From positions 1,680,001 to 1,712,000 of the forward strand of contig NC_007181.1 of NCBI RefSeq assembly GCF_000012285.1: 32,000 nucleotides of DNA, written 5' to 3'. The translations under genes and the position numbers were made by a program. Source of the stretch: Sulfolobus acidocaldarius DSM 639 (GTDB lineage Archaea > Thermoproteota > Thermoprotei_A > Sulfolobales > Sulfolobaceae). The notes beneath the pieces are model-generated. The model did no database searches and was not told the DNA's origin. It saw only the letters and a list, made by a program, of their open reading frames with translations. How positions within the stretch are numbered: position 1 is the first letter of the stretch; the number at the start of each line of letters is the position of its first letter. Positions 1 through 18,636 of the stretch are shown piece after piece.

Positions 1-63
1 CGTTATGAACTTCTTGTCGCCGAACTCCTTCTCAAAGGTTTTTGTAATGGTCTCAGCTTCCAT
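1..63 (-). CDS. 5' end of an unidentified gene running off the left edge (partial)
   Basis: The reverse complement of 1-63 reads ATG GAA GCT... = MEAETITKTFEKEFGDKKFIT, with no stop before the window edge. Only 21 codons are visible, so no family can be assigned. Confidence 0.25.
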   Translation of the reverse strand, partial: MEAETITKTFEKEFGDKKFIT

Positions 64-299
64 GATAATATTTACGTTGAATATGTATTAAAGTGTGACC
101 TTTTCTCAGTGAAAGGTGGAAAGCCTGTGAATGAGTGATGACATGAATTTTTAAGAAATGGCTCCCTCTATAATTTAACTTAATCCTGGTTATGGTAATA
201 CTCTTATCTAAGCTGTGAGACTTTACAACGTTAATTTTGCAGTGTAGGGGTTACGATACCTGACCTTTCCCACTAAAACAGTTTTTGAGCGTTAGCAAA

Positions 300-885
300 G
301 GTATTCAGTTGCTTTTTCCTAGTCTCTGACCAATCAGAACACGGTAAATATTGAACTCCTCATACTTTCATCTTTTACCTCGTCCTTGTCTATGCAGGTA
401 TGTCTAATAAAGACTCTATGCTCTTTTATAGTGTCTTGCAACATCTTATCTCCTTCTGCATTCTTAGCTTTACTACAGTCTGAAAGGAGTATCTCTCTAA
501 TCCTTGCATCAATCCTAGCCTTAGAACATTTAATATGTTCTATAGCATCATTCATATACCTTTCATCTAGCGTTTCCTTGATCTCCACGAAAACGCCTTA
601 TAACTGTAGTCCTTTCCGCTCTCAAAGCAGTATCTTACTTCATCCTTCTCATAACTAACTTTCTGAGTTACACAGAGTGCATCTACGCTTTTCCATATGT
701 TGTGAGCTTATCATATTTTATGCACAAGACTCCTTCTCCAACACTTATGAGCCCATTTAGTTTCAATGTTCTCTTCCTCCCTGCTTATCAGCTCTTTTAT
801 ACCCTAATTAGAAGCAGGGAATATAGTCTTAAATGACTCCACAAAGCCCTCCTCATCTACCTTCCTCCCCTTTTCGTGTATTTAA
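300..885 (-). pseudogene. Decayed inverted copy of the 3' end of the ABC-type ATPase gene plus its small partner gene (paralog of 3990-4540)
   Basis: The reverse complement of about 300-885 aligns by eye with 3990-4540. Example: 700-752 versus 4110-4160 (ataagtgttggagaaggagtcttgtgcataaaatatgataagctc). The ATPase tail reads VDEEGFVESFKTIFPASN*GIKELISREEENIETK, with an in-frame stop and the terminal TGA changed to TGG. The partner-gene copy needs at least two frameshifts to follow MKLNGLISVGEGVLCIKYDKL..KSVDALCVT..VEIKETLDERY. Only the last 84 codons (334-588) remain as an intact ORF. Confidence 0.65.
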
Positions 886-2047
886 TCACAAGTAGTAACA
901 GTACCACCACTACTAGAGCCGTGATAACAACATATAATGATAGACCCTCTGTGGTCGTCGACGATGAAGGACTAGAGTTACTAGAGGTATTCATTGAAGT
1001 AGAGTTACTAGAGCTATTGATTGAGGTAAAGTTAATGGAAGAGTTAACGTATTCTGCCACAAGCCTCCCACCCTCATCTATATACACGGTCTCAGGAGAC
1101 GGTAGGTAAAACACCTTCGACCTTACACCGTCTATTTCCACAGGTTGGGGAAAACTCAACTCTATCTTCTTCTCTAGTGCGAACGTGTAGTTTATGGTCA
1201 TGAACGGGCTTACCCTATCTCCACTATCAAATGGAGTTTGATTTTCGAAAAAGTGTTCACCATTCGAAACCCACAGGCTGTCTGGAGGGAAAGTGTATAC
1301 CGTGTTATTGACTATAACGACACTGAAGTTATAGAGTAGCTGAGGGCTAGTAACGTTACCATATACTACCCAGACCCTTCCGTTGTAATAGTAAGCTGTA
1401 CCGTTATAGGCTCGCTCTCCGGTGTTAACCCAACCGCTGTAAGCTACTGGCGGGACATACCAGCTCCCATTGTACTTGTATAAGCTCACTATCGATATGT
1501 TAAAACCCTTAGCCAGATAGGATATCTCCCCATTTCCATAGCCCGCTACAACAGTACCAATGGTATAGCCATCGTATATTATGTCCAAAAACTTTCCTTC
1601 CAAGATGTAGGTCTTCTCGAAAGTTGAAGTCCCGTCTGACGCGTAGAAGGTTATCACGGTGTTGTTTCCTTCAGGAGTCCAAATAGTGGTCAAGTTTATC
1701 TCATTTCCCATAAGGTAAGATAGACGAGAGACGTCATAGTGCCCGTTATAGTAAACACTGGTGGTCCAGATAGACTCGTTGTTAGTTAAAGGTTGTATTA
1801 CGTTCTGGACGAACGTGCTCTCTCCGTTCACGTTCAGGTAGATGTTCTGCTGTACGGAGATCATAGGTGATCCAGAGGCTAGAGAAATGTTATACATAGT
1901 TATTATGGACTGGATTCCTTCCATTTCCACGTATCCGAATTCATATCCATAGTTTGTGGGTTCATAAATTATCTCCCCAGAGGAGTGGGTTGATGAAAGA
2001 GAGAGGAGTAATAACAATAGAGGGACTACAAATCTTAGTATGCACAT
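857..2047 (-). CDS. Secreted, C-terminally membrane-anchored surface glycoprotein (function unknown)
   Basis: N-terminal signal-like segment MCILRFVVPLLLLLLSLSS. Many N-x-S/T sequons across the body. Ser/Thr-rich stalk (SSSNSTSMNTSSNSSPSSSTTTE) followed by a hydrophobic anchor (LYVVITALVVVVLLLLVI) and a basic tail KRGGR. This topology is typical of Sulfolobales surface proteins. Confidence 0.75.
   Translation of the reverse strand: MCILRFVVPLLLLLLSLSSTHSSGEIIYEPTNYGYEFGYVEMEGIQSIITMYNISLASGSPMISVQQNIYLNVNGESTFVQNVIQPLTNNESIWTTSVYYNGHYDVSRLSYLMGNEINLTTIWTPEGNNTVITFYASDGTSTFEKTYILEGKFLDIIYDGYTIGTVVAGYGNGEISYLAKGFNISIVSLYKYNGSWYVPPVAYSGWVNTGERAYNGTAYYYNGRVWVVYGNVTSPQLLYNFSVVIVNNTVYTFPPDSLWVSNGEHFFENQTPFDSGDRVSPFMTINYTFALEKKIELSFPQPVEIDGVRSKVFYLPSPETVYIDEGGRLVAEYVNSSINFTSINSSSNSTSMNTSSNSSPSSSTTTEGLSLYVVITALVVVVLLLLVIKYTKRGGR
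975..1028. repeat. Two tandem 27-bp units (24/27 identical) inside the Ser/Thr-rich stalk of the 857-2047 gene
   Basis: 975-1001 is gagttactagaggtattcattgaagta and 1002-1028 is gagttactagagctattgattgaggta. A more diverged third unit follows. The units encode the 9-aa repeats INSSSNSTS / MNTSSNSSP on the minus strand. Confidence 0.8.
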
Positions 2048-2916
2048 ATTAATCTAGGTAAATATATTAAAAACATTTTAGCTCACAATTAGGTTATTGA
2101 CCACCCAAATTAAAGGTCTCGAAAACTTTACATGGTTTAGCTCCGCTGTTATGAAGATTTTAACCTTGGTGATAGTGTAGATAGGGTGAAATTATAAGGA
2201 AGGATCAAGAAAGAGGAGGTCTAAAAGGGATTGAGGTAAGGGAAATAGAATAAGCCAAGGAGCATACTTATAGGTTTGTATAGCGACTTTGCATAACTAC
2301 AAGTCGTTCTAGACAAGTTTCTTACAAGTTTGAGGGTATCACTTTTAGAATTAAATTTGTATTATTCTATCAAGTAAAGGTATTAATTGAGGATTATGTA
2401 AAGTATGCTTTAAATTCTTTTAATGTGACCTTATTTGAGGTTTAGATTTTAACTCACTTTCTGAAGAAGTAATCCAAATAGCCACAAACTTCACCACAAG
2501 ACTCTTGATGTGCTTCTAGTAATTTCAGCTTCTCTCTTAAGACCCTCGGCTTTCACAACTCCTGTATAGACATGATAAGTATAGTAAAGACATACAATAA
2601 TCAACGTTTAAGGATTAGAGGTTCAGAATCATTTAAAAGATTAAGGTATAGATACTAAAGTGATTATCCTTACTTTATTATGTTGGATCAGAGGTGTAGT
2701 ACACCGCTCAAGCAGTGAAGTGTAGAGGTTTAGAAACCTATCTAATCCCTTATCTACCAGTATTACCAACTTTCCCATAACCCCAAATAAAGGATAAGCT
2801 ATACTTAAAGAAGAAAATAATTCATATCTAAAGCCAGTATAAAGGCTATATTTAATTATGTCTTCTAGAAAAGGCTTTAGGAAAGTATTTTACCTTGGCA
2901 AGTTTTAACACAAAGT

Positions 2917-4107
2917 ATGAAAATAAGAATTAACAACATTGGTCCCATTAAGGAGGCTGACCTCGAGTTTTCTGATAAAGCCGTGATAGTTGGTGGAAAT
3001 GCGACCGGAAAGACGTTCATTGCCGCGTTAGTGTACTTTTTACTTAATCCATTGATCATGGTAGACAGACCCTTAAAGTATAAGCTAGAGCTCCCTGCTA
3101 AGATAGAGGAAAATAGGGAGGTCTCCCTCGAGATTCCAGTAAATTATAAGGACATAATGGAAGAGAATAAAGATTTAATCGGTGCAGCAGTTAAAAGGAC
3201 ACTAACTTCTATATTTGGAGCCAGTATCGGAGAGCTTATAAGATTTCGGGAGACTGAGGGTGTTGTAGAAAACGAAAAAATTAAAATTATTCTACATAAG
3301 GAAAACGTTGAAGTAATTCCAAAAGTTGACCAGAGAGAAAACCTAAACGTCCAAATATTTAAGACCTCCAATAACTTTCCAGGCTGTGTTACTTCCATAA
3401 GCCCAGACGGTAAAATTGTGGTAATGGGTAACAGACCAGAGATATGTCTTGAGAATTCAATAGGGAATTTTATCCTCACAAGGTTCTTAGTTGACCCTTC
3501 CTATTCTCCTGTGGCATACATTAGTACTGAGAGAATAGCATCAATATTTTATCTGCCAAGCAACTTAAACAGGCTAATTCTACCTCCAGTGTCCGCTAGC
3601 CTAGTTAAGCCCCTAATCGCCGATTTTCTAAAGTATATAACGCCTAATACTAAATTTACTTTGTTTGGTCATGAAATAGAGGTCAATAAGGAGCTGATGA
3701 TTAAGGTGTCTAAAGAGGGAAAAGAGGTGAACTCTTCACTGGTGTCTACTGGAATATACCAATTTATCCCTGTGGAGCTTGCCCTACAGCATCCGCTATT
3801 GAAGACGGTGATAATAGAAGAACCCGAAATAAACTTGCACGTTAATGCACAGATTGAGGTAGCAAAAAGATTAGCCCGTGAAAAAGCTAAAAAGTTGCTT
3901 ATAACTACTCACAGTGAATGGATACCAATGTATGTAGCAAAGCTATCTAAGGGTTCGAAGATCTACGAGATTGTAGAAGGTGTGTTAGAAGAAAGGAAAG
4001 TAGATGAGGAAGGTTATGTAGAAACGTTTAAGACTATATTCCCTGTGGCTGATAAGGGTATAAAAGAGCTGATAAGCAGGGAGGACGAGAATATTGAAAC
4101 TAAATGA
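2917..4107 (+). CDS. ABC-type (AAA_15/AAA_21-like) ATPase
   Basis: SMC/ABC-like N-terminus MKIRINNIGPIKEADLEF..VIVGGNATGKTF (Walker A at aa 26-33). Signature-like LVSTGIYQ. Walker B TVIIEEPEINLH. H-loop LITTHSEW. The layout matches stand-alone ABC ATPases that are often paired with a small effector gene. Confidence 0.8.
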   Translation: MKIRINNIGPIKEADLEFSDKAVIVGGNATGKTFIAALVYFLLNPLIMVDRPLKYKLELPAKIEENREVSLEIPVNYKDIMEENKDLIGAAVKRTLTSIFGASIGELIRFRETEGVVENEKIKIILHKENVEVIPKVDQRENLNVQIFKTSNNFPGCVTSISPDGKIVVMGNRPEICLENSIGNFILTRFLVDPSYSPVAYISTERIASIFYLPSNLNRLILPPVSASLVKPLIADFLKYITPNTKFTLFGHEIEVNKELMIKVSKEGKEVNSSLVSTGIYQFIPVELALQHPLLKTVIIEEPEINLHVNAQIEVAKRLAREKAKKLLITTHSEWIPMYVAKLSKGSKIYEIVEGVLEERKVDEEGYVETFKTIFPVADKGIKELISREDENIETK

Positions 4108-4540
4108 GCTGATAAGTGTTGGAGAAGGAGTCTTGTGCATAAAATATGATAAGCTCTACAGGATTGGAAAGAGCGTCGATGCGCTATGTGTGACTATGAA
4201 AGTTAATGAAGAAGAGAGAAAGAGGTATTGCTTCGAAAGCCAGAATAATGAAAGTTATGAGGCAATTCTGGTAGAAATCAAAGAAAAGCTAAACGAAAAG
4301 CATCTGAAAGAAGCCATAGACCAGATTACATGTTCTAAGTCTAGGATCGATGCAAAGATCAGAAGGGCATTTATACTCCTTTCAGACTGTAGTAAAGCTA
4401 AGACTGCACAGGAAGATAAGATGTTATTGGAGGCAATGAAACAGTACAAGATCCATATTACAAACGTTTGCCTAGATGTGGATGAGGTTAAAGATGAAAG
4501 TACAAAGAATCTGATAAATACTGCAACTGAGTTGAGTTAA
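4094..4540 (+). CDS. Small partner protein of the ABC-type ATPase (unknown function)
   Basis: The TTG start lies 14 nt inside the end of the ATPase gene. A diverged paralog survives at 334-588 on the minus strand, about half of residues identical by eye over the shared C-terminal region. Conserved CSK(S/A)RIDA..LLSDCSKAK..DEVKDES segment. I recognise no catalytic motif. Confidence 0.6.
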   Translation: MKLNELISVGEGVLCIKYDKLYRIGKSVDALCVTMKVNEEERKRYCFESQNNESYEAILVEIKEKLNEKHLKEAIDQITCSKSRIDAKIRRAFILLSDCSKAKTAQEDKMLLEAMKQYKIHITNVCLDVDEVKDESTKNLINTATELS

Positions 4541-4781
4541 AGAGTAAGTAATAGAAAATATAACTGAAACATCTTTTCCTACTTTCACAGCGACTCTATA
4601 CATTTTTAATTATTTGAATGAAGTGTCGTTTCTCAAATTTAATTTGAGTTAGATAATAAAATTGGGAGAGCCTTTTAATTCAGGGAAGCGAGGTATTCAG
4701 AAATTCTCAGTGATATTTGCCTCATCGGGAGTTTTCGTATAATTACCTTTATTCTGTTTAATTATTAAAAAAATACTTGTA

Positions 4782-6024
4782 AGTCCACTGACAACGGTTT
4801 ATAAATATCTTGTCAGTAAACTATCAAATAAGGAAGTAATAAACAGGATTAATCCTTGGTGGTTCTACGAGAACTGGGAGTCAAAGGATAAGCACCTAGC
4901 AGAGTGGAGTTCTCAGAAGTACAGGTGGACTCCACGGTGGATCAGCGAGCTTTCTCTAGAGCCCTTCAGCTTAAACTTTGTTTATGGCACTAGGCAGACT
5001 GGAAAGACCACAGGACTAAAGCTGTTGATAAAGGAGGTAATAGAGAGGGGGAACTTTTCGCCAATGGCTATCTACTACATGGATCTGGACTATGTCACAT
5101 CCCTTTCAGAGTTCAGGAGGATTTTAGGGAATGTGATCAAAGAGAGGAAGAAAAGGGGTCAGACTGAAAACTTAATAGTCCTCGATGAGGTTACGTCTGT
5201 TGACGAGTGGTGGAGGGTACTAAAGTTCTTCCTTGACGAGGGGGAGTTTAAGGATGATGTTATCATAGTGAGCGGTTCCTCCACGCTAGGTCTAACAAAG
5301 GTTCCAGAGAAGTTTCCGGGAAGAAAGGGTAAAGGGAAAGGGATTAAGGTGCCCACATTATCTTTCCCGGAATTTGCAGAGGTCTTAGGTCACAAGAGAG
5401 AGGGCTTACTCTACGATAATTCCAGAGCCTTAGCTCTGTTTGAAGATTATAAGATGAAGGGAGGATTTCCTAAGTCTATTAACGGTAACCGTGATGCGAG
5501 AGGTGCCCTAATCGACGGGATATTGTCTGAAGTGTACAAGCACAGTAGGAGTCCAAGAATAGTTCAGGATATTCTGTACTCACTGATGGACAAGATACCT
5601 TCAGCAATATCTTACAATTCAGTAGCTAATGAACTTGGGATTTCCCACAACACGGTAAGGGAGTACCTAGATTTTCTCTCCGACATACTCCTGATTGGAA
5701 TTGCCTTTCTAAAGGAGGGAGACGAAGTAAGCTGTCAGAAAGGAAAAGAAAGTGTTCTTTCGGGATCCATTCATATTACACTCAACCTCTGAGTGGGTAG
5801 GAAGAGAATTTAATAACAGTGCTCTCTTGGAGAGCGTAGTCCAAGAGCATCTGTTCAGGAAGTTCGGTGAGGTCTACTTCTTCAAGGGCTCCTATGAAAT
5901 AGGCGTGGTCTCAGGAGAGTATAAGATAGAGGTGAAGAGTGGGAGGGCTCATAGGGGATACCCAAGGGGTGTTACTGTGCTATCAGAAGAGAGTATTCCA
6001 AGGTTCCTGTTGGAGCTCCTGTGA
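4782..6024 (+). pseudogene. AAA_14 / DUF4143-type ATPase, disrupted (no canonical start before the P-loop, plus one frameshift)
   Basis: The frame is open from 4782 and encodes ..INPWWFYENWE..LNFVYGTRQTGKTTGLKLL (P-loop at 4986-5012). No ATG/GTG/TTG occurs in frame before the TTG at 5025, which is downstream of the P-loop. The frame also breaks at about 5725-5735: ..AFLKEGDEV then continues in frame +1 as RKEKKVFFRDPFI.. (ORF 5752-6024). Confidence 0.7.
4798..4807 (+). promoter_or_regulatory. TATA-box-like element upstream of the AAA_14-type ATPase pseudogene
   Basis: tttataaata matches the Sulfolobus TATA consensus (TTTAWATA-like). It lies just after the in-frame stop at 4779-4781 that opens the reading frame. 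Confidence 0.35.
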
Positions 6025-6894: not shown

Positions 6895-7158
6895 ATGCAG
6901 AACAAAAGGACTGAGAACGATATCGAGAAGTTGAAGGTAATACTCAATGTAGTGATGCAATACAAACTATCTGGACATGTTAATGATGAAATAGTAAAAA
7001 GACTAGCCCTAAGCGTAAAGTCATTGAAGTACCTGAGAAATGAAGAGTATGGACCAAGAATTGACAAAACCTTTAGCCTTTTAATACAGAATAAACTCGA
7101 TGAGGCAATTAAAGAGATGAGAGATATAATACTGAGTTTTTATGGTGGGCATGATTGA
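6895..7158 (+). CDS. Small, apparently all-helical protein, first gene of the RAMP operon (possible Cas11-like small subunit; unproven)
   Basis: 87 aa with a charged, helix-favouring composition. Its TGA (7156-7158) overlaps the TTG start (7155) of the Cas7-like gene. The Cas11 idea rests only on position and composition. Confidence 0.5.
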   Translation: MQNKRTENDIEKLKVILNVVMQYKLSGHVNDEIVKRLALSVKSLKYLRNEEYGPRIDKTFSLLIQNKLDEAIKEMRDIILSFYGGHD

Positions 7159-8339
7159 TTAAGGTCATACCTGTATTAATAAAAACCATGTCGATAACTA
7201 GGATAGGATCTACGGGTGTATATTTTGACTACGCCTCTGCTGATATAGTAACTTATAAATTGCCCCTTCAAGATTCTAACGAAGTTTACTATATTCCAGC
7301 AATACCTGCGACATCTTTTAAAGGTTTACTGAGGTCAACATATGAGAAATACCTAAGATGGAATAATGTAGGTTATCAGAGGAGAGAGGTTAAGAAAGAA
7401 CGAATCAAGAATATAATTAATGAATATAGTGTTAATCATGGCGATACGGTTAAGGAACTGGTTGAGGAAATGAAGAGCGAACTACGGAGGTATATATCGG
7501 GTGGGCTGATTAAAAACACAAATCTTCCTGACGACATTACAGAGCTAATTATACTCTACTTAAACGTAACTGGTTGGAACAGTAAGGACGCATGTTACGT
7601 AACTTCAGACCTAGACCAATGTGTTAATTTAAGTATTATAGAAGACGAAGGTGTGAGAAAAAAGAAAGAGTTGTGGTTAAAGCTTATGGAGAGAGACCAA
7701 ATATGTAAGGTGTGTAATGTTTTAGGTAGTTCAGGGGTAAGGGGAAAAGTCAAGTTTACGGACTTAATAGCTGTGGACCCATTCCCTGTGTATATCGAGA
7801 GAAGTACTCATATAGCCATAAATAGATTGACAGGTACTGCAGAAAAAGGGAAGATCTTCACGGAAGAGATAATACCTCCGGGTGTTAAATTCTTGGGTTT
7901 TGTTGCAGTGCTAGATAACTCTATCCTCAACCAGGTTAGGGAGATGTTAAGAATACTAAAGACCAAGGCAGAGAGGGGAGAGGTCTGGATAGGAGGTAGG
8001 GGTACAGCTGGGTACGGTACCTTTGAGATGCACCTCCCACCTGAGATAATTGAGTTTTCAACACACTCCTTATTTAGGGGTAGACGTTTAGGGTTAAAGG
8101 AGAGTGAGCCAGCTCCTAATCCGACTATAGTTAATGGTATCATTAGTAAGCTATACCCGAGTAGTTTTACTTCTTCGTTGGTAGAGGTCACTGAGGGTGA
8201 GGTAGAGTACGAGGTGGTTATTGAAGGTGAAGGAGTAACTAAGGTTAAATCTGTTGATGATTTAAAGAAAATTACAAGTGAGCTTGATAAATCTGGTAAA
8301 AAGTACCAAATAAAAACACATGGTGAATATCACCTATGA
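7155..8339 (+). CDS. cas7: Type III Cas7-like RAMP protein (Csm3/Cmr4-like) with a long internal insertion and a C-terminal extension of about 100 aa
   Basis: RAMP hallmarks in the translation are: N-terminal strand MIKVIPVLIKT..RIGSTG; IPATSFKGLLRS (aa 50-61, cf. IPGSSlKGalRs); CKVCNVLGSSGVRGKVKFTD (aa 184-203); HIAINRLTGTAEKGKIFTEEIIPPGVKF (aa 219-246, cf. iDR.TG.a...LF..E.vp.G..F); and the Gly-rich loop IGGRGTAGYGTF (aa 279-290). The TTG start at 7155 overlaps the upstream stop. The in-frame ATG at 7188 is an alternative start. Confidence 0.8.
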   Translation: MIKVIPVLIKTMSITRIGSTGVYFDYASADIVTYKLPLQDSNEVYYIPAIPATSFKGLLRSTYEKYLRWNNVGYQRREVKKERIKNIINEYSVNHGDTVKELVEEMKSELRRYISGGLIKNTNLPDDITELIILYLNVTGWNSKDACYVTSDLDQCVNLSIIEDEGVRKKKELWLKLMERDQICKVCNVLGSSGVRGKVKFTDLIAVDPFPVYIERSTHIAINRLTGTAEKGKIFTEEIIPPGVKFLGFVAVLDNSILNQVREMLRILKTKAERGEVWIGGRGTAGYGTFEMHLPPEIIEFSTHSLFRGRRLGLKESEPAPNPTIVNGIISKLYPSSFTSSLVEVTEGEVEYEVVIEGEGVTKVKSVDDLKKITSELDKSGKKYQIKTHGEYHL

Positions 8340-8653
8340 ATCTCGATTTAAACTTAAACGGGATTAACGTTAGTTTCAAGATAGATACTGGCTTTGACGG
8401 AGAGTGCTTACTTCCACACGATATATTCAGTAAAATAGGTGGATATGAATATGACGGCCCTCCGGTCAGCTTGAGCGATGGAAGGGGATACCTGACGAGG
8501 GCTAAAATTGTGGAAGTTGTCTTTAACGGAAAAAATCTCATTTTGGAGTGTATATCAGTAGTGTACATAAATAAGACATTGCTAGGAGAGAGGGCACTCT
8601 CTAAATTAGGAATATTGATAGACTACAAAAACCAGGGGGTCAAAGACCCATGA
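8336..8653 (+). CDS. Retropepsin-like (clan AA) aspartic protease, single-domain monomer
   Basis: FKIDTGFDGECLLP carries D17-T18-G19 (nt 8384-8392). VSLSDGRG follows, and the C-terminal TLLGERAL (aa 81-88) corresponds to the retropepsin I/L-x-G-R-x-x-L motif. At 105 aa it is the size of one retropepsin subunit. ATGA overlaps occur at both ends (8336-8339 and 8650-8653). Confidence 0.75.
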   Translation: MNLDLNLNGINVSFKIDTGFDGECLLPHDIFSKIGGYEYDGPPVSLSDGRGYLTRAKIVEVVFNGKNLILECISVVYINKTLLGERALSKLGILIDYKNQGVKDP

Positions 8654-9336
8654 TTAAATTGGTCATAAGGTTAGAACCATCTACTGGTTATGTTATATCT
8701 GGTGAACCCTCTCCAGATAGAAAAGTAGAGTTCAACGCTAGTATATTTTATAGTTATCCTTATATCAACCCATCTACAATAAAAGGCTTTTTGAGGTCTG
8801 CAGCCGTTTACGGGTATCCTGATGTCTCATGTGAAATTCTAAGTTCCAAAACCATTATAAGTAACATAGATAGAATAAAGAAAAAAATACATAATGAGGA
8901 GCAAATTAGACTAAGTTTTATGTGCTCTGATATAGAGGATCTGTTAGAGAACAGGAATAGTAGGGAGGCAAGCGTATATTTAGAAGTGTTAGGTGATATA
9001 ATCCGTAAGCTAAAAAGACCTTGTAAGGTCTGCAGAGTTTTTGGTAACGGTAGTGTGAAGGGGAAACTCAGAATTATTTATCAAATTCGACCTTTAAATA
9101 CTACTGAGATTAAAGGGTTAAAATTCAGTAGGGAGTATAAGGAGAATAGGGAAGGTCTAAGTGTAATGATGTCCAAAGATCCCATAGAGTTCACTGTTTT
9201 GTGTGAAGATAAAGAGTGTCAGGAGGTAATAAAGAGAGCAGTTAGTGTAATTAACGATAGTGTAGTGAGACTAGGTAGGTTTAAGTCTAGAGGGTTCGGA
9301 ATAGTTAATGCAAAAATAGTATCAATGAGTACTTGA
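8650..9336 (+). CDS. cas7: Second, shorter RAMP protein (Cas7-group, paralog of the 394-aa protein)
   Basis: MIKLVIRLEPSTG..; INPSTIKGFLRS (aa 39-50); CKVCRVFGNGSVKGKLRI (aa 125-142, nearly the same motif as in the 394-aa protein); Gly-rich loop RLGRFKSRGFGIV (aa 207-219). Confidence 0.7.
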   Translation: MIKLVIRLEPSTGYVISGEPSPDRKVEFNASIFYSYPYINPSTIKGFLRSAAVYGYPDVSCEILSSKTIISNIDRIKKKIHNEEQIRLSFMCSDIEDLLENRNSREASVYLEVLGDIIRKLKRPCKVCRVFGNGSVKGKLRIIYQIRPLNTTEIKGLKFSREYKENREGLSVMMSKDPIEFTVLCEDKECQEVIKRAVSVINDSVVRLGRFKSRGFGIVNAKIVSMST

Positions 9337-9705
9337 ACATTCCGATAAAATTTCCTCCTCTTTCTTCCTATCTATAATGTTTCTGCTCCCATTTTCCTTA
9401 ATAGTTATGTAATTTAGGGCATTCTCGATCATATTAAACAGTCTGTCGCATTCCTCTTGCTCATTTATCAAGCAAATTATTTTTAATTCATTAGGTTCAT
9501 AAGACATTAAAATCCTCGACATGAAAGGTAGGTCTTTTTTACCACTACCAAATACACTCCTGTCAAAATCTCTGTTGCATAGAAGTGCATAGCATCTTAT
9601 AAACGACTTCAGTGTCCAAAGACTCCTCTCGATATTAGAACCCAACTCAACTCTAATTGCGTATATTTTAGGGCTCTTAGGGTCATACTTCAATATCCAT
9701 CGCAT
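9322..9705 (-). CDS. Hypothetical protein, last gene of the Cas10-like operon
   Basis: 127 aa. The start overlaps the end of the upstream 245-aa gene by 16 nt. The stop region overlaps the 3' end of the convergent RAMP gene by 15 nt. No motif recognised. Confidence 0.5.
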   Translation of the reverse strand: MRWILKYDPKSPKIYAIRVELGSNIERSLWTLKSFIRCYALLCNRDFDRSVFGSGKKDLPFMSRILMSYEPNELKIICLINEQEECDRLFNMIENALNYITIKENGSRNIIDRKKEEEILSECSSTH

Positions 9706-10427
9706 GGCGCAATCACTCCTGTACCCGCTTTCACATACTCTTTAGTATAATGCTCAATTGAATCCAGTGAACCAGGGAATTTATTGTAGAAACTACCAAA
9801 TTCATTGGATTCGTTGTACCTAAATGTGCATAGTAACACATTACGATCATTTTGCACCTCCTTTACCTTTTTGTCTTGCATATCAAAATAATACACTTTT
9901 CTATCTAGACCTAAGAAATTAGTGTTGTTAAACCTTTGAACAGTAATTCTCCTTAAGTAACCTCTATATTCCCCTAGGCTTTCCACGTCTTTCACAGGAA
10001 GATTGTGAACGCATAACTCATTACTTCTAGCCGTATACTCGGATATTTCAACCATCTCGAATACAGTATAGTTATTCCCAACTAGAACTAGATACTTTTT
10101 CAACAAATCTTCAACGGATCGCAGGTCACTAGATATCACATAACCTTGAAAGTCCACATACGGACCATCCTTTGAGATTAGCTTATGGTACAAATATGGC
10201 ATGGAATAGTTCACAACTCTATCTAGCCTTATCCTTAATCTATCATAGTGTTTAACTTTGTTACCATTTCGTTTAACGATGTAGAAATTAGTGAACATTA
10301 TATCATAACTCCTTGTGTCCTTATTTATCACCATACCGTAGACTAAACCACCTGCAATAGTCGTAGATGGTAGTACATCCGCTCTATATCCATTGTATGC
10401 CCTTAGAACAGCCTTTAACAATTTCAT
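9690..10427 (-). CDS. Cas5-group RAMP-like protein (Csm4/Cmr3-like), tentative
   Basis: The N-terminal VLPSTTIAGGLVYGM (aa 18-32) resembles the lPS.Tl.GAl motif of Csm4/Cmr3. A weak C-terminal Gly loop KAGTGVIAP is present. An ATGA overlap (10424-10427) joins it to the upstream Cas10-like gene, the usual cas10-cas5 adjacency of type III loci. Confidence 0.5.
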   Translation of the reverse strand: MKLLKAVLRAYNGYRADVLPSTTIAGGLVYGMVINKDTRSYDIMFTNFYIVKRNGNKVKHYDRLRIRLDRVVNYSMPYLYHKLISKDGPYVDFQGYVISSDLRSVEDLLKKYLVLVGNNYTVFEMVEISEYTARSNELCVHNLPVKDVESLGEYRGYLRRITVQRFNNTNFLGLDRKVYYFDMQDKKVKEVQNDRNVLLCTFRYNESNEFGSFYNKFPGSLDSIEHYTKEYVKAGTGVIAPCDGY

Positions 10428-13081
10428 GCCAACAACCTCGCCACGTATGCCATTATAATATCATCTCTTTCATATTTAACAGAGAATGGTTTTCGATCTG
10501 ATGAATACCTCTTTACGTATTTCTCAAACCCTTCTACTTTCTTATACTCCCTGAACTCTGGATAAGTTACATCTGGCGCAGAAGATACTACGAATTCATT
10601 GAGCTTCTGAGGATCTCCATGCTCAGATATCCTTTTGAAAGCAGTAAATAGTTCATTATAACTGAAAGAATTAAGGTCACCTATGGGCATACCACCTTTG
10701 TTCAATATCACTGGCACCACATCTACTACCCTGATATCGTCCTTGCCATTAATCTCTGTAACTTCTCTGTCTAAGAGCCTAAATACCATATATAGAGGTG
10801 TTTCAGGCTTTGCCTTTATAAGGAAAATTTTTATTGAATGTTCAAGGATTGCTTCCTGAGCTCTACCAGGAGTGTCAAAGATACCAAAGACCTTGCCTAT
10901 TAAATCTAATACTTTTGGTAAATCATCTTTCTTAATAGCGAGCATAGAATACTCAGTAGTTGATGATGAAGGTATCAAAGTGATATAATCTATGTTGCTA
11001 TTTATTAGTAGGTATTCAAGATATTCTACTAGAATTGAGAAATGGATCTTTAGTGAGAAAGTCCTATCTAAAGAGATGGATATATCAATCATTTCATTGT
11101 TTTCAGCACTAATCATCTTTACAAATTCTAGACGCTTTTTAAAAAATTTTAATCTCATTTCATTCTCTGGATCATTTGTCAGTGTCTTCCGAGCTATATT
11201 GTTTATTAACATGTTATCCTTCTTTTTTGACTTGTCAACCCCATTTATCATTAGTATACTTTTTATCATACCTTTGAGAGTTGTTCCATTTTCAGACTTG
11301 CACAGACACTCTACTAAAAATTCAGAAATGGTGTCTGCGTCTGGTTTACTTAAACTAGATAGTTTTTCTAAATATTTCCTCAAGAATAATTCTATACATC
11401 CTTGAAAATTCTGATTGAAATTACAATCTTTCTTTACAGGGTAAAAATCTTTTATTTTTTCGGTCATGCCTTTAATTACATTTATAATTTCAGACAAGAA
11501 TTCATTTAGGCTAACTTCTAGTTTATTAACCTCAAAGAAATCTGATATACTAATTTTTCTGTCCTTTAAAACGTGCTTCATATCTAACTTGAAAACAAGG
11601 TAAATAAGATCTTTCCCCTTTGCAAATTCATCGATGCTTTGTCTCACTAAAATTTTCTCAGTCCTCTTTAGATACAATCCCTCATCTCCAGTCTGTTGCC
11701 TAACCTCTCCAATTAAGCTACTTGCTATTCTAGTGGTTAAACAAATGTCACAAAGCCTTTCATCCTCCTTGACAATAAACATGCTCCTAAGTTCATCCCA
11801 TATGGAATCTTCCAACTTTACGGCTTTCCTGACTTTACACTTATCACATAACTTATCCGAAGTGATACTTCCATCGTACTCAATTTTAATGATCCTGAAA
11901 TAATCGGTATGATCTGTGGTTTTCAGTAATTCATTAACTTTCTCAGCTAACTTTATCTTATCCTCGCTGTCCTTTTCAACCTTACCTAACTCTGAGACTA
12001 CTAATATTATATCGCTTTTCCTTTCAGTGCGTTTAGGGGGTTTGTCGGATACTAATTTAGGCCACGCATGTGTGTATATTGTCTCAATGGTATCTTTAAG
12101 ACTAGTCTTTGTACATTCTTCTAGAGATTTTTCATCGTTATAGAAGACAGTTAAAAAGCTCTTTATTTGACTAGGATTAATCTCCTCAGATTCATGGATG
12201 TATACGTTGAACACGAATGAGTTGAAGAAGTCTACTATGGACATATTTAGGAAAGCATAAAGCCCTAAATTCTCCGTGTCTAGAACCTTCTCTAGAGCCT
12301 TTTGAAAATCTATATTAAGTTTATCCCACAGGCAAAGATTAAGATGATACAGGAAAATATTAGTAATGATATATAGTCCCCTTACATCCTTAAGGGTTCT
12401 TAGATCGGTCTCGAAAGGATTAGAAATGCTGAACACTTTCACGACGCCTTTCCTAAACAATAGATCTGCTAATAAAGCACCCTTAAGGTGTGCTAAAACA
12501 GATATATCGTTACCAGAAATCCAACTTCTCTGGGGAAAAAACTTGATCGAGTCAATTAGAGAACTAAAAGTTTTCATGTCAAACGGCTTACCATTTTCTG
12601 CAATATTACGTAGTTGATCATAAGTCCCATTACCATACTTGAAGTCAATAAAATTCCTTACGTACTCACTACTAAGGTCTTTAAACCAATTTTGGAACAA
12701 TGATCTTTCTACCTTGATTGATCTTCCATTATTTTCCTCTAATAAAATCGGAAACCCCCTTAAATCAAAGGAAATGACTATTTTTGAAGGCAAATCATTC
12801 ATGACATTTTTAAAGAGCTCCTGGTCTCTTGACTGTGCCTCTATTAGTTTTTCCGACTCTTCTGCAATACTTGCAATATGGTCGCATATCTCGTAGTAAG
12901 TAGAGTCATTTTTATCTCTACCTGCTGGTAAAATACCCTTAAAGAGGTCATGTATATAACACATTACAGGGCTTTGCCCATAATCTGCCAACATATAATT
13001 TCTAAGTACTTCATCATGACCTAGTGAACCCACATGTAGAATTAATGAACTATAAAATAAATTCTTTATCCTACTCGTCAT
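10424..13081 (-). CDS. cas10: Cas10-like large subunit, divergent (zinc finger retained, canonical GGDD cyclase motif not found)
   Basis: 885 aa. CDKC-x28-CDIC (aa 412-447, nt 11741-11848) is like the Cas10 treble-clef zinc finger. ISVLAHLKGALLADLL (aa 193-208) resembles the conserved sL.dH...taaiA.aL segment. LIYLVFKLDMKHV (aa 492-504) is a candidate first Palm2 strand. IDYITLIPSSSTTEYSMLAIKKDDLPKVLDLIGKVF (aa 697-732) sits where vYaGGDDl.lvG.wd.v would be expected. N-terminal His/Asp candidates are LILHVGSLGHD and YIHDLFKG. The RAMP gene context supports the call. Confidence 0.55.
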   Translation of the reverse strand: MTSRIKNLFYSSLILHVGSLGHDEVLRNYMLADYGQSPVMCYIHDLFKGILPAGRDKNDSTYYEICDHIASIAEESEKLIEAQSRDQELFKNVMNDLPSKIVISFDLRGFPILLEENNGRSIKVERSLFQNWFKDLSSEYVRNFIDFKYGNGTYDQLRNIAENGKPFDMKTFSSLIDSIKFFPQRSWISGNDISVLAHLKGALLADLLFRKGVVKVFSISNPFETDLRTLKDVRGLYIITNIFLYHLNLCLWDKLNIDFQKALEKVLDTENLGLYAFLNMSIVDFFNSFVFNVYIHESEEINPSQIKSFLTVFYNDEKSLEECTKTSLKDTIETIYTHAWPKLVSDKPPKRTERKSDIILVVSELGKVEKDSEDKIKLAEKVNELLKTTDHTDYFRIIKIEYDGSITSDKLCDKCKVRKAVKLEDSIWDELRSMFIVKEDERLCDICLTTRIASSLIGEVRQQTGDEGLYLKRTEKILVRQSIDEFAKGKDLIYLVFKLDMKHVLKDRKISISDFFEVNKLEVSLNEFLSEIINVIKGMTEKIKDFYPVKKDCNFNQNFQGCIELFLRKYLEKLSSLSKPDADTISEFLVECLCKSENGTTLKGMIKSILMINGVDKSKKKDNMLINNIARKTLTNDPENEMRLKFFKKRLEFVKMISAENNEMIDISISLDRTFSLKIHFSILVEYLEYLLINSNIDYITLIPSSSTTEYSMLAIKKDDLPKVLDLIGKVFGIFDTPGRAQEAILEHSIKIFLIKAKPETPLYMVFRLLDREVTEINGKDDIRVVDVVPVILNKGGMPIGDLNSFSYNELFTAFKRISEHGDPQKLNEFVVSSAPDVTYPEFREYKKVEGFEKYVKRYSSDRKPFSVKYERDDIIMAYVARLLA

Positions 13082-14012
13082 ACTAGTAGTGTAATTGCAC
13101 TTTGCAACAAGTATTTGTGTTAGAATGAAAATTTCGATAACGTCGTTGAAGGGTCTAACCCTATTAGGACGTATATTCTTTAAGTTGACATGAAAACATT
13201 TTATGTTCTCCCTAGTTCTAATGAACGTAAAAACTTGTTATTCCTTTGAACCTCGTCTCATATAAACTATGAGAAAAGATCAGTCTTCTCTTACTTTCTC
13301 CTATTAACTATGATTCTTGTGAGAGGTATACAAATTCGTCTGTATGATTATAGTACAATAATTTTTCACGTTTCTACCTTTGTTTTTTCCTCAACTATGT
13401 CTACGCGTGATCTCTGGTAGACCAGTTTTAACGTTAAAGCGGTCAGAATAAGACTTCCATTAAACAACGGCAATTGATCCTCGATATTAGAAGAAAGGTT
13501 GATGAGTCATATTACGGAGTATCTAACTTCACCATTGCCAAATGTTATAAAAAGAGACGTTTTACTTTCTTTAGACATGGATCGCATCATAACTCTAACT
13601 GTAGGTAAAAGAAATACTTATTCATAGGTTAAGATGAGGTTCCATTTTAAGAAACCTATTGAAGTATTCTTCTCCATGTTTTCTGTGTATGGTTGTATTG
13701 CATTTATGAAGGTAAAAACTCTGATAACGCTTTTTATATATACGGAAAAATTAAGGCTGTCAAAATTGTAAAGGAATTTAAGAAGCTAGAATTACAGAAG
13801 AGGCTTTAAAGATTTGAGGGAAAGTTAAATTGAGGGTCTAATATATAGAGTTAATGAGGTTTTTAAATCTTTACTCTAGTTATCATAATCTAGTTAAAAC
13901 TGTAAAAAATATCTGCTTCTACTTAAAATATACTACCATCAATAAATATCTTTCACTTAAAAGAGGATTATTTATCATATAAAAAATCTCTCTACTACTT
14001 CACATTATAAAA

Positions 14013-16765: not shown

Positions 16766-17422
16766 ATGTCATTTCCGCCCCCAAATACTCCAAGCTCTCC
16801 CCCACCCCCTCCCCCTAGAAGACCATTAAAGTACGTGATTTTAGGAACAGTGCTTGCAGTAGTGATAGTTGTGGGATTAGTGGTTTATTTCTCCTTTTTC
16901 AGCACCAGTGCACAGGCTAAGATAATCCCTGCAAGTAGTGTAGGATCTGCTTTAGGCGGGAGTTGTCAAATAGAGTCCAATAAGTCAGTCCAAATAAATA
17001 AATTAGCAAATGGAGAGTATGAACTGACGTATGTTAATGGAACCCATACCACTACCTACTTATCTAACATCTCAATAAGTCTTATTGGAATTGTTCCATT
17101 AAGGGGATCATTGCTCCAAGTTATATTCTCAGGAGTAGTGGAATTCCTAAACTGTAATATTAACGGACAAAATGCCACTGTCAACATATTGACAATGGTG
17201 TTTACCAACTCAAGTGAGGCAAATCAAGAATTCAGTATTTACAAGGCTTTTGCATCACTTTATCCTAACGCGTCAGTGAGCCAATCATACATTTACTACT
17301 CGCTCTTTGATTACTCCTATGGCGCGGGAGTAAGAAATAACGTATTCAGTTCGGTTGTTATTCAAGGCCCAATGATTGGAGAGAACCAGGTATTAGGAAT
17401 TGTAAACCTTGCACTATCATAA
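16766..17422 (+). CDS. N-terminally anchored membrane/secreted protein with a proline-run cytoplasmic tail
   Basis: MSFPPPNTPSSPPPPPPRRP is followed by one hydrophobic helix (YVILGTVLAVVIVVGLVVYFSFF), then a sequon-containing extracellular domain. Confidence 0.65.
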   Translation: MSFPPPNTPSSPPPPPPRRPLKYVILGTVLAVVIVVGLVVYFSFFSTSAQAKIIPASSVGSALGGSCQIESNKSVQINKLANGEYELTYVNGTHTTTYLSNISISLIGIVPLRGSLLQVIFSGVVEFLNCNINGQNATVNILTMVFTNSSEANQEFSIYKAFASLYPNASVSQSYIYYSLFDYSYGAGVRNNVFSSVVIQGPMIGENQVLGIVNLALS

Positions 17423-17441
17423 TCAGCACATTCTGAAACTG

Positions 17442-17454
17442 CTTTTATTTTTTA
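17442..17454 (+). terminator. Oligo-T tract, candidate archaeal terminator
   Basis: cttttatttttta lies 20-32 nt after the TAA at 17420-17422. Archaeal RNA polymerase terminates at T-runs. Confidence 0.3.
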
Positions 17455-17719
17455 TAACATGATTTTTGTAAGGAGAAAAATTTTCTCTCAATTCTCACTC
17501 AGCCGTCTTTATTTTCACATTTTGAATGTCTCGGCTGAACTTTAGATAAAGTCGACAGAGATATATAAGAGTATGGATAAAAACTAATTCCTCAACTAAT
17601 CCAATCTATCAGGGAGTTTTAGCAATAAAGGTGTTCAGTAAGTTTTGAATGATAAATGATCTAGAAATACAATAACGTCAAAGGAGTATTTCCATTATTA
17701 CACTCCATGTAGTTTATCG

Positions 17720-17938
17720 TTGTCCTCACGCTATCCTAAATTAGACTTCAAGAACGGGACTTTTCGAGCTATTGAGGAATCCGACATTTTTATCAGACTT
17801 AAAAAGACTTTACAGAAGTTTGACGTGTCACCTTTCATGTTAAGCGGCAGTCCTATTGACGTAAATATGTTATGTTTACCTTATGTATATGAAGGCATAA
17901 TACAAGGTCCTCTCTCCTCGTCATTAGAAAAGGATTAA
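17720..17938 (+). CDS. Hypothetical small protein (weak call)
   Basis: 72-aa ORF with a TTG start, lying immediately upstream of trmO on the same strand. No motif recognised. Confidence 0.3.
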   Translation: MSSRYPKLDFKNGTFRAIEESDIFIRLKKTLQKFDVSPFMLSGSPIDVNMLCLPYVYEGIIQGPLSSSLEKD

Positions 17939-17963
17939 ATATTTGTCGGTCTAGACTTCTTTA

Positions 17964-18386
17964 ATGTCGTGTTGTTTTAAGTACATAGGCTACGTGAAAA
18001 GAGAAGACAACTCCCCGTCAAGGAGGAGTGTAGTGAAGATTGTCGTGGACAAGGAGTATGAAGAAGGGTTAAGGGGTATAGAGGACTACTCACACCTTAT
18101 AATCGTCTACCACCTCCACCTATCCCAATTTGACGGTAATCTGGTGAGAGATTTCCATGAGGGGGTAAGGGTAGGAGTGTTCGCCACTAGGACCCACGAG
18201 AGACCCAATCCCATAGGGATATCTGTTGTCGAGTTACTAAAGGTAGAGGGTAATATACTCCAGGTTGGAGGTATAAACGCTGTTGATGGTACTCCAGTCC
18301 TCGATATAAAGCCCTATGACTACTTTGACAGAGTAGAGAATATTAGGGTCCCAGGCTGGTGGTTGAAGAAGTTCTATCAACACTAG
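17964..18386 (+). CDS. trmO: tRNA (t6A37-N6)-methyltransferase TrmO / TsaA (YaeB, UPF0066) family
   Basis: SHLIIVYHLH.., GVFATRTHERPNPIGISVVELLKVEGNILQVGGINAVDGTPVLDIKPY is the characteristic TsaA/YaeB core (F.tRsp.RPNpiG.s.v.l...g..l.v.g.D..dGTPvLDIKPY). Confidence 0.85.
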   Translation: MSCCFKYIGYVKREDNSPSRRSVVKIVVDKEYEEGLRGIEDYSHLIIVYHLHLSQFDGNLVRDFHEGVRVGVFATRTHERPNPIGISVVELLKVEGNILQVGGINAVDGTPVLDIKPYDYFDRVENIRVPGWWLKKFYQH

Positions 18387-18636
18387 TTTGCGTTAAGTAA
18401 TGGGTTTTATTTCTCTTCTCTGCATAGGTTCATGTACTTGACTAATTGTCGACAAAAACCCACTAATGAGAGGATTTGTACTCTTACCTTACAGACTGCC
18501 CTTAAAACCCTCGATATACAGGAATCTCGTAATCTAACTGTGACTTGAGGAGGAGAGACTTCGCTGGGTTAAACAAAAGAGGACAACACAATAGGTGAGG
18601 TCTCACTGAAAAACAGTTCTCCCTACACGTCTCCAA

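Follow-up and report, generated by a model that had tools for sequence, protein, structure and literature searches.

A seven-gene cassette of subtype III-G

The 32-kb window analysed here, that is, the whole stretch of 32,000 nucleotides from positions 1,680,001 to 1,712,000 of Sulfolobus acidocaldarius DSM 639 contig NC_007181.1, contains between its positions 6895 and 13081 an array-less interference module of subtype III-G of the CRISPR-Cas systems, which is real and already known. Seven overlapping open reading frames (ORFs) form two convergent operons over this span (Table 1), and the seven ORFs, with the coordinates and overlaps given in an initial annotation made from the sequence alone, are matched exactly by the ORF list and the sequence itself. 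The genes of the plus operon are joined by start/stop overlaps (TTGA at 7155, ATGA at 8336 and ATGA at 8650), those of the minus operon by an ATGA (10424-10427, cas10/cas5) and a 16-nt overlap (9690-9705, cas5/csx26), and the two operons themselves overlap tail-to-tail by 15 nt (9322-9336). All seven proteins match dedicated family models of NCBIfam or PADLOC, and it is because these profiles cover the complete cassette and agree with the published descriptions that the locus is identified as III-G. The exact 885-amino acid (aa) Cas10g recurs, with identical layout and flanks, in many assemblies of S. acidocaldarius (CP046615.1 is one), and 108 blocks of the assembly collection contain the exact protein, which confirms the Sulfolobales origin assumed at first and places the cassette in the host group described for this subtype.

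The sequence motifs first read from the translations are also in place, namely, KGLLRS and KGFLRS of the RAMP (repeat-associated mysterious protein) type, CKVC shared by the two Cas7 proteins, RLTG plus GRGTAGYG in Cas7a, and the CDKC-x28-CDIC finger in the large protein. The 32-kb window was searched with Tandem Repeats Finder, for direct repeats and against Rfam, and no CRISPR array and no Rfam family were detected, so that the description of the module as array-less holds within the window, which also contains neither cas6 nor adaptation genes. The TATA-box-like element upstream of the plus operon (Table 1) is presumably an archaeal promoter that gives rise to a leaderless transcript, to judge from Sulfolobus promoters in general; a scan for sigma-70 promoters and terminators, with a bacterial model that is unsuited to an archaeon, yielded no sites above the level of shuffled sequence.

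Table 1. Genes and sequence features of the III-G module (window coordinates)
Feature	Position	Strand	Description
TATA-box-like TTTTTAAAA	6866-6874	+	20 nt upstream of the plus operon's first ATG
C3a64	6895-7158	+	87 aa; PADLOC PDLC01058 C3a64, E 3.7e-38
Cas7a, large III-G Cas7	7155-8339	+	394 aa; PF03787, E 2.5e-27; Cas7_IIIg, E 2e-54
Cas7a catalytic-loop Asp D30	7242-7244	+
Cas7a C-terminal tail	8202-8336	+	~45 aa, residues 350-394
Clan AA aspartic protease, retropepsin-like	8336-8653	+	105 aa; TIGR03698, PEPT_D
Protease D17-T18-G19	8384-8392	+
Cas7b, small III-G Cas7	8650-9336	+	228 aa; PF03787, E 2.4e-11; Cas7_IIIg, E 1.2e-54; PDLC01500, E 6e-68
Csx26	9322-9705	-	127 aa; NF049948, E 1.3e-38; PADLOC Csx26, E 5e-39
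Cas5 of III-G	9690-10427	-	245 aa; PADLOC Cas5_IIIg, E 5.5e-87; PDLC01545 Csm4, E 1.5e-87
Cas10g	10424-13081	-	885 aa (869 aa from GTG 13033); PADLOC Cas10g, E 1.3e-254
Cas10g degenerate Palm2 hairpin LIPSSS	10961-10978	-
Cas10g zinc finger CxxC-x28-CxxC	11741-11848	-
Cas10g HD motif, D67	12881-12883	-
Cas10g HD motif, HD	12947-12952	-
Cas10g HD motif, GHD	13013-13021	-

The cassette can be followed through the literature under several names. A type III variant 'VIII-1', confined to Sulfolobales and drawn with an 'asp' gene for a putative aspartate protease, was described by Garrett et al. 2015 (PMC4390879), who also attribute 'a variant CRISPR-Cas system' to S. acidocaldarius. In the lists of Shah et al. 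2018 (PMC6546367), Csx26 (SacN8_09300) appears alongside the protease (SacN8_09290) and C3a64, their cluster 64 (SacRon12I_09300), and the authors propose that Csx26 and the protease 'may comprise core cas genes' of the IIIV-1 variant of crenarchaea. Zink et al. 2020 (PMC7694759) counted 15 such loci, mostly in S. acidocaldarius and S. islandicus, which at that time were experimentally unstudied. Subtype III-G was named by Makarova et al. 2025 (PMC12669027); as described there, it is Sulfolobales-specific, has a Cas10 with an inactivated Palm domain and an apparently active HD domain, has Csx26 as its signature and possible Cas11 substitute, and lacks an adaptation module and an array, so that CRISPR RNAs (crRNAs) would be recruited in trans. 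Nothing on III-G is found in the main text of Altae-Tran 2023 or in the accessible text supplements of the 2025 classification.

Because a classified subtype already covers all seven genes, the protease included, the suggestion that the cassette is a new type III variant fails: each gene has been modelled and the whole has been named. The profile searches of the seven proteins that had been proposed as a check do return dedicated models, and with them the very outcome that had been named as counting against novelty, a fit to a classified subtype in which the protease is described. The locus thus adds no new kind of system but is a textbook S. acidocaldarius example of III-G. Its value lies in the combination of a subtype that is experimentally uncharacterised in the accessible published descriptions with a genetically tractable host.

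Cas10g retains the HD residues and has lost the cyclase site

An AlphaFold2 (AF2) model of Cas10g was built on nine homologs (predicted template modelling score 0.73). The top four Foldseek matches of this model are chains of ~1000 residues that belong to Cmr complexes of type III-B (E 6e-9 to 3e-7, probability 1.00), a size that fits Cmr2/Cas10; the best PDB chains include 9l7c_B and 6s8b_K, and chains of Csm complexes come next. A profile search of Cas10g against the PDB sequences produced no match. The fold match, the HD residues and the zinc finger together mark the protein as a type III Cas10 large subunit, and this fold and the Csm3/Cmr4-class Cas7 proteins discussed below vindicate the original type III-like assignment.

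The residues that are invariant among the nine homologs, down to 24% identity, are G21-H22, H44-D45, D67, D192, H198, D232 and the four cysteines of the zinc finger, with GH(D/E) at positions 21-23. To judge from this conservation, the HD nuclease domain of Cas10g is apparently active, as described for III-G. The Palm domain conforms to the subtype as well. No GGDD-like motif was found in Cas10g by motif search, and the hairpin at the corresponding position reads PSSS, PQTM, NPST or PPSS in the homologs, with no acidic residues; the early description of a Cas10 without a canonical GGDD is, accordingly, accurate, and the model and the missing motif are those of a III-G-clade Cas10 with an inactivated cyclase Palm.

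The cas10g gene has two possible starts, GTG at 13033, which yields the 869-aa form deposited at NCBI, and ATG at 13081, which yields 885 aa. The first 16 residues of the longer ORF, H16 included, are not conserved and the orthologs begin just before GH(D/E), and for these reasons GTG 13033 is a plausible true start of the gene; it is preceded by the T-rich TTTATTTTATAG at 13050-13061.

One of the two Cas7 proteins keeps the catalytic-loop aspartate

Both Cas7 proteins match PF03787 and Cas7_IIIg and are of the Csm3/Cmr4 backbone class, with Cas7a as the presumed backbone subunit, in line with the two Cas7-group genes recognised at first. The profile of Cas7a matches chains of Cas7-11, III-D Cas7, Csm3 and Cmr4, and its best matches among the solved structures are Cas7-11 domains.

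The catalytic-loop aspartate of Cas7a, D30, is strongly conserved. The 'FDY-x-SAD' segment is invariant in Cas7a, and when Cas7a is aligned with 68 representative homologs, the D30 column contains Asp in 56 of the 69 sequences and sits inside the canonical D-x-P-V-I-(K/R)-D...P-Y-I-P-G-S-S-L-K-G signature. In a 34-sequence alignment, all members of which match Csx7 and nearly all of which match Csm3 and Cmr4, the residue is at least 90% conserved. The same column aligns to D429 of the D. ishimotonii Cas7-11, where the chain of the D429A mutant has Ala, and a direct alignment places D30 of Cas7a on D654 of Cas7-11; both D429 and D654 of DiCas7-11 are documented as catalytic. The aspartate is encoded in all 10 III-G loci surveyed below. 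In an alignment of Cas7b orthologs, the catalytic-loop position has no conserved Asp. Thus, the trait stated for III-G by Makarova et al. 2025 (PMC12669027), namely, that Cas7 has no conserved catalytic Asp, applies to Cas7b only, whereas Cas7a keeps the residue. On the strength of the alignments, we read this mismatch as a correction to the description of III-G rather than as a ground for excluding the locus from the subtype. Because Cas7a keeps this one residue, ruler-like cleavage of the target RNA is probably retained.

Many gene calls of the large III-G Cas7 begin just downstream of the catalytic-loop Asp; in the S. islandicus-type locus L009, the stretch concerned is 4672-4780. For S. 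islandicus Y.N.15.51, the organism of the published III-G model, the GenBank protein ACP49387.1 (319 aa) starts just after the Asp equivalent to D30, and the RefSeq protein WP_080513587.1 of S. islandicus (346 aa) includes it.

The embedded protease

The 105-aa protein encoded between the two cas7 genes matches TIGR03698 (E 1.3e-31; 109 bits, with the cutoff at 57) and the PADLOC model PEPT_D (E 2.3e-55), described as 'Aspartyl protease, in the type III operon in Sulfolobales'. The D-T/S-G motif in a single-lobe protein of about 100 aa is that of clan AA, so that the retropepsin-like aspartic protease of the initial annotation is upheld, and the enzyme is predicted to act as a homodimer. The DTGFDGE segment is invariant in three aligned protease orthologs and DTGF is found in four further protease sequences.

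The protease gene is present in seven of the 10 III-G loci, and the C-terminal tail of Cas7a is found in exactly these seven loci and is absent in the three that lack the protease. As evidence of a functional link, this co-occurrence had to be downgraded: the two coding regions abut, and a single insertion or deletion could explain the pattern. The PHROGs database contained no match for the small proteins or for the Cas7a tail. The protease is an optional accessory, the most likely target or docking site of which is the Cas7a tail.

A more far-reaching role can be envisaged for it, that of the output of an RNA-guided protease akin to the III-E Craspase, in which the retropepsin-like enzyme would respond to target-RNA binding after the loss of cyclic oligoadenylate (cOA) signalling. 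Such a role is suggested by the placement of the gene, with ATGA overlaps on both sides, by the conservation of the catalytic DTG, by the spread of the protease to a distant locus binned to Marsarchaeota, and by the tail, a possible docking site that always accompanies it. Three III-G loci, those of the S. islandicus type among them, nevertheless do without the protease, which therefore is not essential to III-G; no conserved candidate substrate gene lies next to it; and Shah et al. 2018 (PMC6546367) favour Cas protein maturation or crRNA metabolism as the function of the small type III peptidases. We regard an RNA-guided protease as quite improbable.

Cas5, Csx26 and C3a64

The assignment of the 245-aa protein as Cas5 rests on the III-G-specific models (E about 1e-87), its position and its coupling to cas10. 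It has no Pfam match, and a profile of its orthologs finds no Csm4, Cmr3 or Cas5 chain in the PDB, so that a generic Cas5/Csm4 kinship is undetected there.

The 127-aa protein was at first listed as unknown; the gene stands, and its product is Csx26, the III-G signature protein, as shown by the match to NF049948, 'type III-G CRISPR-associated protein Csx26' (131.5 bits, the cutoff being 50). Three cysteines, C38, C78 and C123, are invariant in five aligned orthologs. The label 'HNH nuclease' given to Csx26 by Shah et al. 2018 and PADLOC is unsupported, there being no invariant His, Asn or Asp in these five orthologs.

Neither Csx26 nor C3a64 shows similarity to Cas11, Csm2 or Cmr5 in family models and PDB profile searches, to which a structure search was added for C3a64. 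A recognisable type III small subunit is thus missing, as had been noticed from the sequence, and this lack is a described trait of III-G. Homolog searches with C3a64 and Csx26 returned near-identical sequences only, and their sequence profiles had no match at all in the PDB. The AF2 model of C3a64, made from a single sequence, consists of three helices (predicted local distance difference test score 70). The structure search with this model yielded only generic three-helix-bundle matches, the best with an E-value of about 1.1, and so brought neither support for C3a64 as the missing Cas11 nor evidence against it.

The C3a64 gene heads cas7a in all 10 loci, as a sequence homolog in nine and as a positional ORF in the tenth, and matches the core genes in its conservation. 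It is absent from the accessible text and figure legends of Makarova et al. 2025 (PMC12669027), including the input lists for the AlphaFold3 complexes.

Ten III-G loci

The survey sample comprises 10 III-G loci, including the one in the window; a contig scan with a single Cas10 protein found no match, and one with a Cas10 alignment recovered three loci only. Cas10g, Cas5, Csx26, Cas7a and Cas7b are encoded in all 10, with Cas10 identity down to 24%. The convergent order of the seven S. acidocaldarius genes, with the protease, recurs in a metagenome-assembled genome (MAG) of Sulfolobaceae (L007) and in Stygiolobus (L011). The other protease-bearing loci are collinear in two Sulfolobales genomes (L013 and L015), rearranged in Sulfurisphaera javensis (L006) and divergent in the contig binned to Marsarchaeota (L012). 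The three loci without the protease are the collinear one in a Metallosphaera prunae MAG (L008) and two of the S. islandicus type with the order C3a64-cas7a-csx26-cas7b-cas10-cas5 (L009 and L014). Conservation of the seven-gene arrangement, which the initial annotation had proposed to survey, therefore extends to the convergent layout of two relatives; the remaining loci have other layouts, and three lack the protease.

The retention of intact gene sets throughout this sample, with Cas10 identity as low as 24%, argues for function. The module could be seen instead as an inactive relic: a type III cassette in decay, which has shed its array, cyclase and accessory genes and no longer plays a part in immunity. 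The absence of an array, cas6 and adaptation genes from the window, the lost cyclase site, the opinion expressed in one paper that these genes probably form no functional cluster, and the decay of neighbouring genes, of which the AAA_14/DUF4143 gene, split in two at 5025-6024, is an example, all fit such a relic. Yet the seven ORFs are all intact and translationally coupled, the exact 885-aa protein recurs in the 108 assembly blocks and the gene set persists across several genera, and the invariant residues gather where the HD motifs, the zinc finger, the catalytic loop of Cas7 and the DTG of the protease lie. We therefore give the relic slightly less credence still than the RNA-guided protease.

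The absence of an array and adaptation genes in the window agrees with the description of III-G but is not universal. In the M. prunae MAG, an array of at least 36 repeats (2-2300) is followed by cas6 (2668-3531) and then by cas10g and the rest of the module. In S. javensis, cas10g has cas6 (6918-7712) directly upstream of it, and the locus is flanked on both sides by arrays (57-3500 and 17080-18610). The array repeats of both loci end in (A/G)TTGAAAG. Because cas6 and arrays adjoin III-G modules in these two cases, there is direct genomic support for the dependence of the module on crRNA.

These loci also bear on the possibility that a type III derivative has been recruited to a crRNA-independent role outside defence, as was raised in the initial annotation. 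The lack of arrays in S. acidocaldarius and most of the other loci, together with the unusual extra subunits, would be in keeping with this. However, the crRNA-binding architecture of Cas7 filament proteins, Cas5 and Cas10 is intact, the module has cas6 and arrays as immediate neighbours in two lineages, and, according to the Extended Data legend of PMC12669027, many bona fide III-B, III-C and III-F loci are array-less too. With the HD and Cas7 catalytic residues kept and relatives located beside cas6 and arrays, such recruitment is neither needed nor supported, and its probability is close to negligible. All three alternatives, the relic, the Craspase-like protease and the role outside defence, are less likely than a III-G interference module.

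The Marsarchaeota-binned locus (6986-13230 of NEXG01000035.1, Candidatus Marsarchaeota G2 archaeon ECH_B_1) contains a complete III-G set, the protease included, in two divergent operons on a contig with ~51% GC that is placed outside Sulfolobales. If the binning is correct, the host range of III-G extends beyond Sulfolobales. Together with the conservation of the catalytic Asp and the nearby arrays, the host range is one of the points at which these side observations suggest small corrections to the published account of III-G.

Comparison with other type III systems

The locus itself shows no difference from subtype III-G (formerly 'IIIV-1/VIII-1') as presented in PMC12669027: the shared traits are a Cas10g that combines an HD domain with an inactive Palm, Cas5, two Cas7 proteins, Csx26, the absence of adaptation genes and an array from the locus, and a Sulfolobales host, and the asp protease and C3a64 have already been catalogued with S. 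acidocaldarius genes as examples. It is the survey as a whole that departs from this summary, with the Asp kept in Cas7a, arrays and cas6 at two loci, one Marsarchaeota-binned locus and a core-like C3a64.

With III-B Cmr and III-A Csm, the module shares the Cas10-fold large subunit, for which the III-B Cmr chains are the best structural matches, and the Csm3/Cmr4/Csx7-class backbone, which has both the catalytic Asp column and the zinc-ribbon CxxC. It differs in lacking GGDD, a recognisable Cas11 (Csm2/Cmr5) and a nearby CARF/SAVED effector, in having two Cas7 paralogs only, and in the additional Csx26, C3a64 and protease. The likeness to III-E Cas7-11 and Csx29 (Craspase) consists in the kinship of Cas7a to the Cas7-11 domains, with D30 on D429/D654, and in a protease whose gene is embedded in a type III system without cOA signalling. 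In III-E, however, the effector is a single fused protein without Cas10 and the protease is a large TPR-CHAT caspase-like enzyme, whereas III-G is a multi-subunit system with Cas10 and its 105-aa retropepsin-like protease is missing from some loci.

Proposed mechanism

We consider it highly probable that the module is a III-G interference complex with crRNA supplied in trans, a DNA-cutting HD domain and no cOA, in which RNA cleavage is probably kept and the protease is optional. Because the window has no array, cas6 or adaptation genes, the crRNAs would be loaded from host arrays elsewhere in the genome, those associated with I-D and III-D. Cas7a would polymerise along the crRNA as a filament, and Cas7b, Cas5 and Cas10g would cap the complex, with Csx26, possibly together with C3a64, as the stand-in for the missing Cas11 filament. 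A complementary transcript would, on binding, activate the HD nuclease of Cas10g, which would cut DNA; because GGDD is lost, no cyclic-oligoadenylate signal would be made. The target RNA would probably be cut by Cas7a in a ruler-like manner, and the protease may serve as an optional maturation or docking factor at the Cas7a tail.

Several points weigh against parts of this scheme. Makarova et al. 2025 (PMC12669027) predict DNA targeting for III-G and state that the catalytic aspartates of its Cas7 are non-conserved; the RNA cleavage proposed for Cas7a departs from the published inference, for which these non-conserved aspartates were the basis. An Asp in the right column is no proof of RNase activity. 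Generic Cas5 and Cas11 homology is not shown for the 245-aa protein, Csx26 and C3a64, and the link between the protease and the tail is confounded by the adjacency of their coding regions. The S. javensis arrays may belong to neighbouring systems. Finally, no experimental work on III-G is reported in the accessible published descriptions of the subtype.

A stronger claim, to the effect that III-G is not the reduced, DNA-only system that it is taken for, that Cas7a cuts RNA, that the protease works via the tail and that C3a64 is an unrecognised structural subunit, seems unlikely in its entirety, although somewhat less so than the alternatives discussed above. If it were true, then in the lineages that bear the protease, this locus among them, the enzyme could mature the filament, or else, as a complex-bound aspartic protease responsive to target RNA, it could replace the lost cOA signalling.

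Neighbouring genes

Upstream of the module, at 2917-4540, are a 396-aa AAA_15/AAA_21 ATPase, which resembles PD-T4-4_A, AriA and GajA in PADLOC, and its 148-aa partner. This pair, which is fused in some S. acidocaldarius strains (532-562 aa), also adjoins the III-G locus of the Sulfolobaceae MAG (8210-9860 of L007) and may be a separate defence gene pair. The AAA_14/DUF4143 ATPase gene, the PADLOC candidate PDC-S01, is split into overlapping ORFs of 255 and 90 aa, which suggests a frameshift. A minus-strand ORF of 396 aa without a family assignment (857-2047) contains a 27-nt tandem repeat of 2.3 copies at 973-1034.

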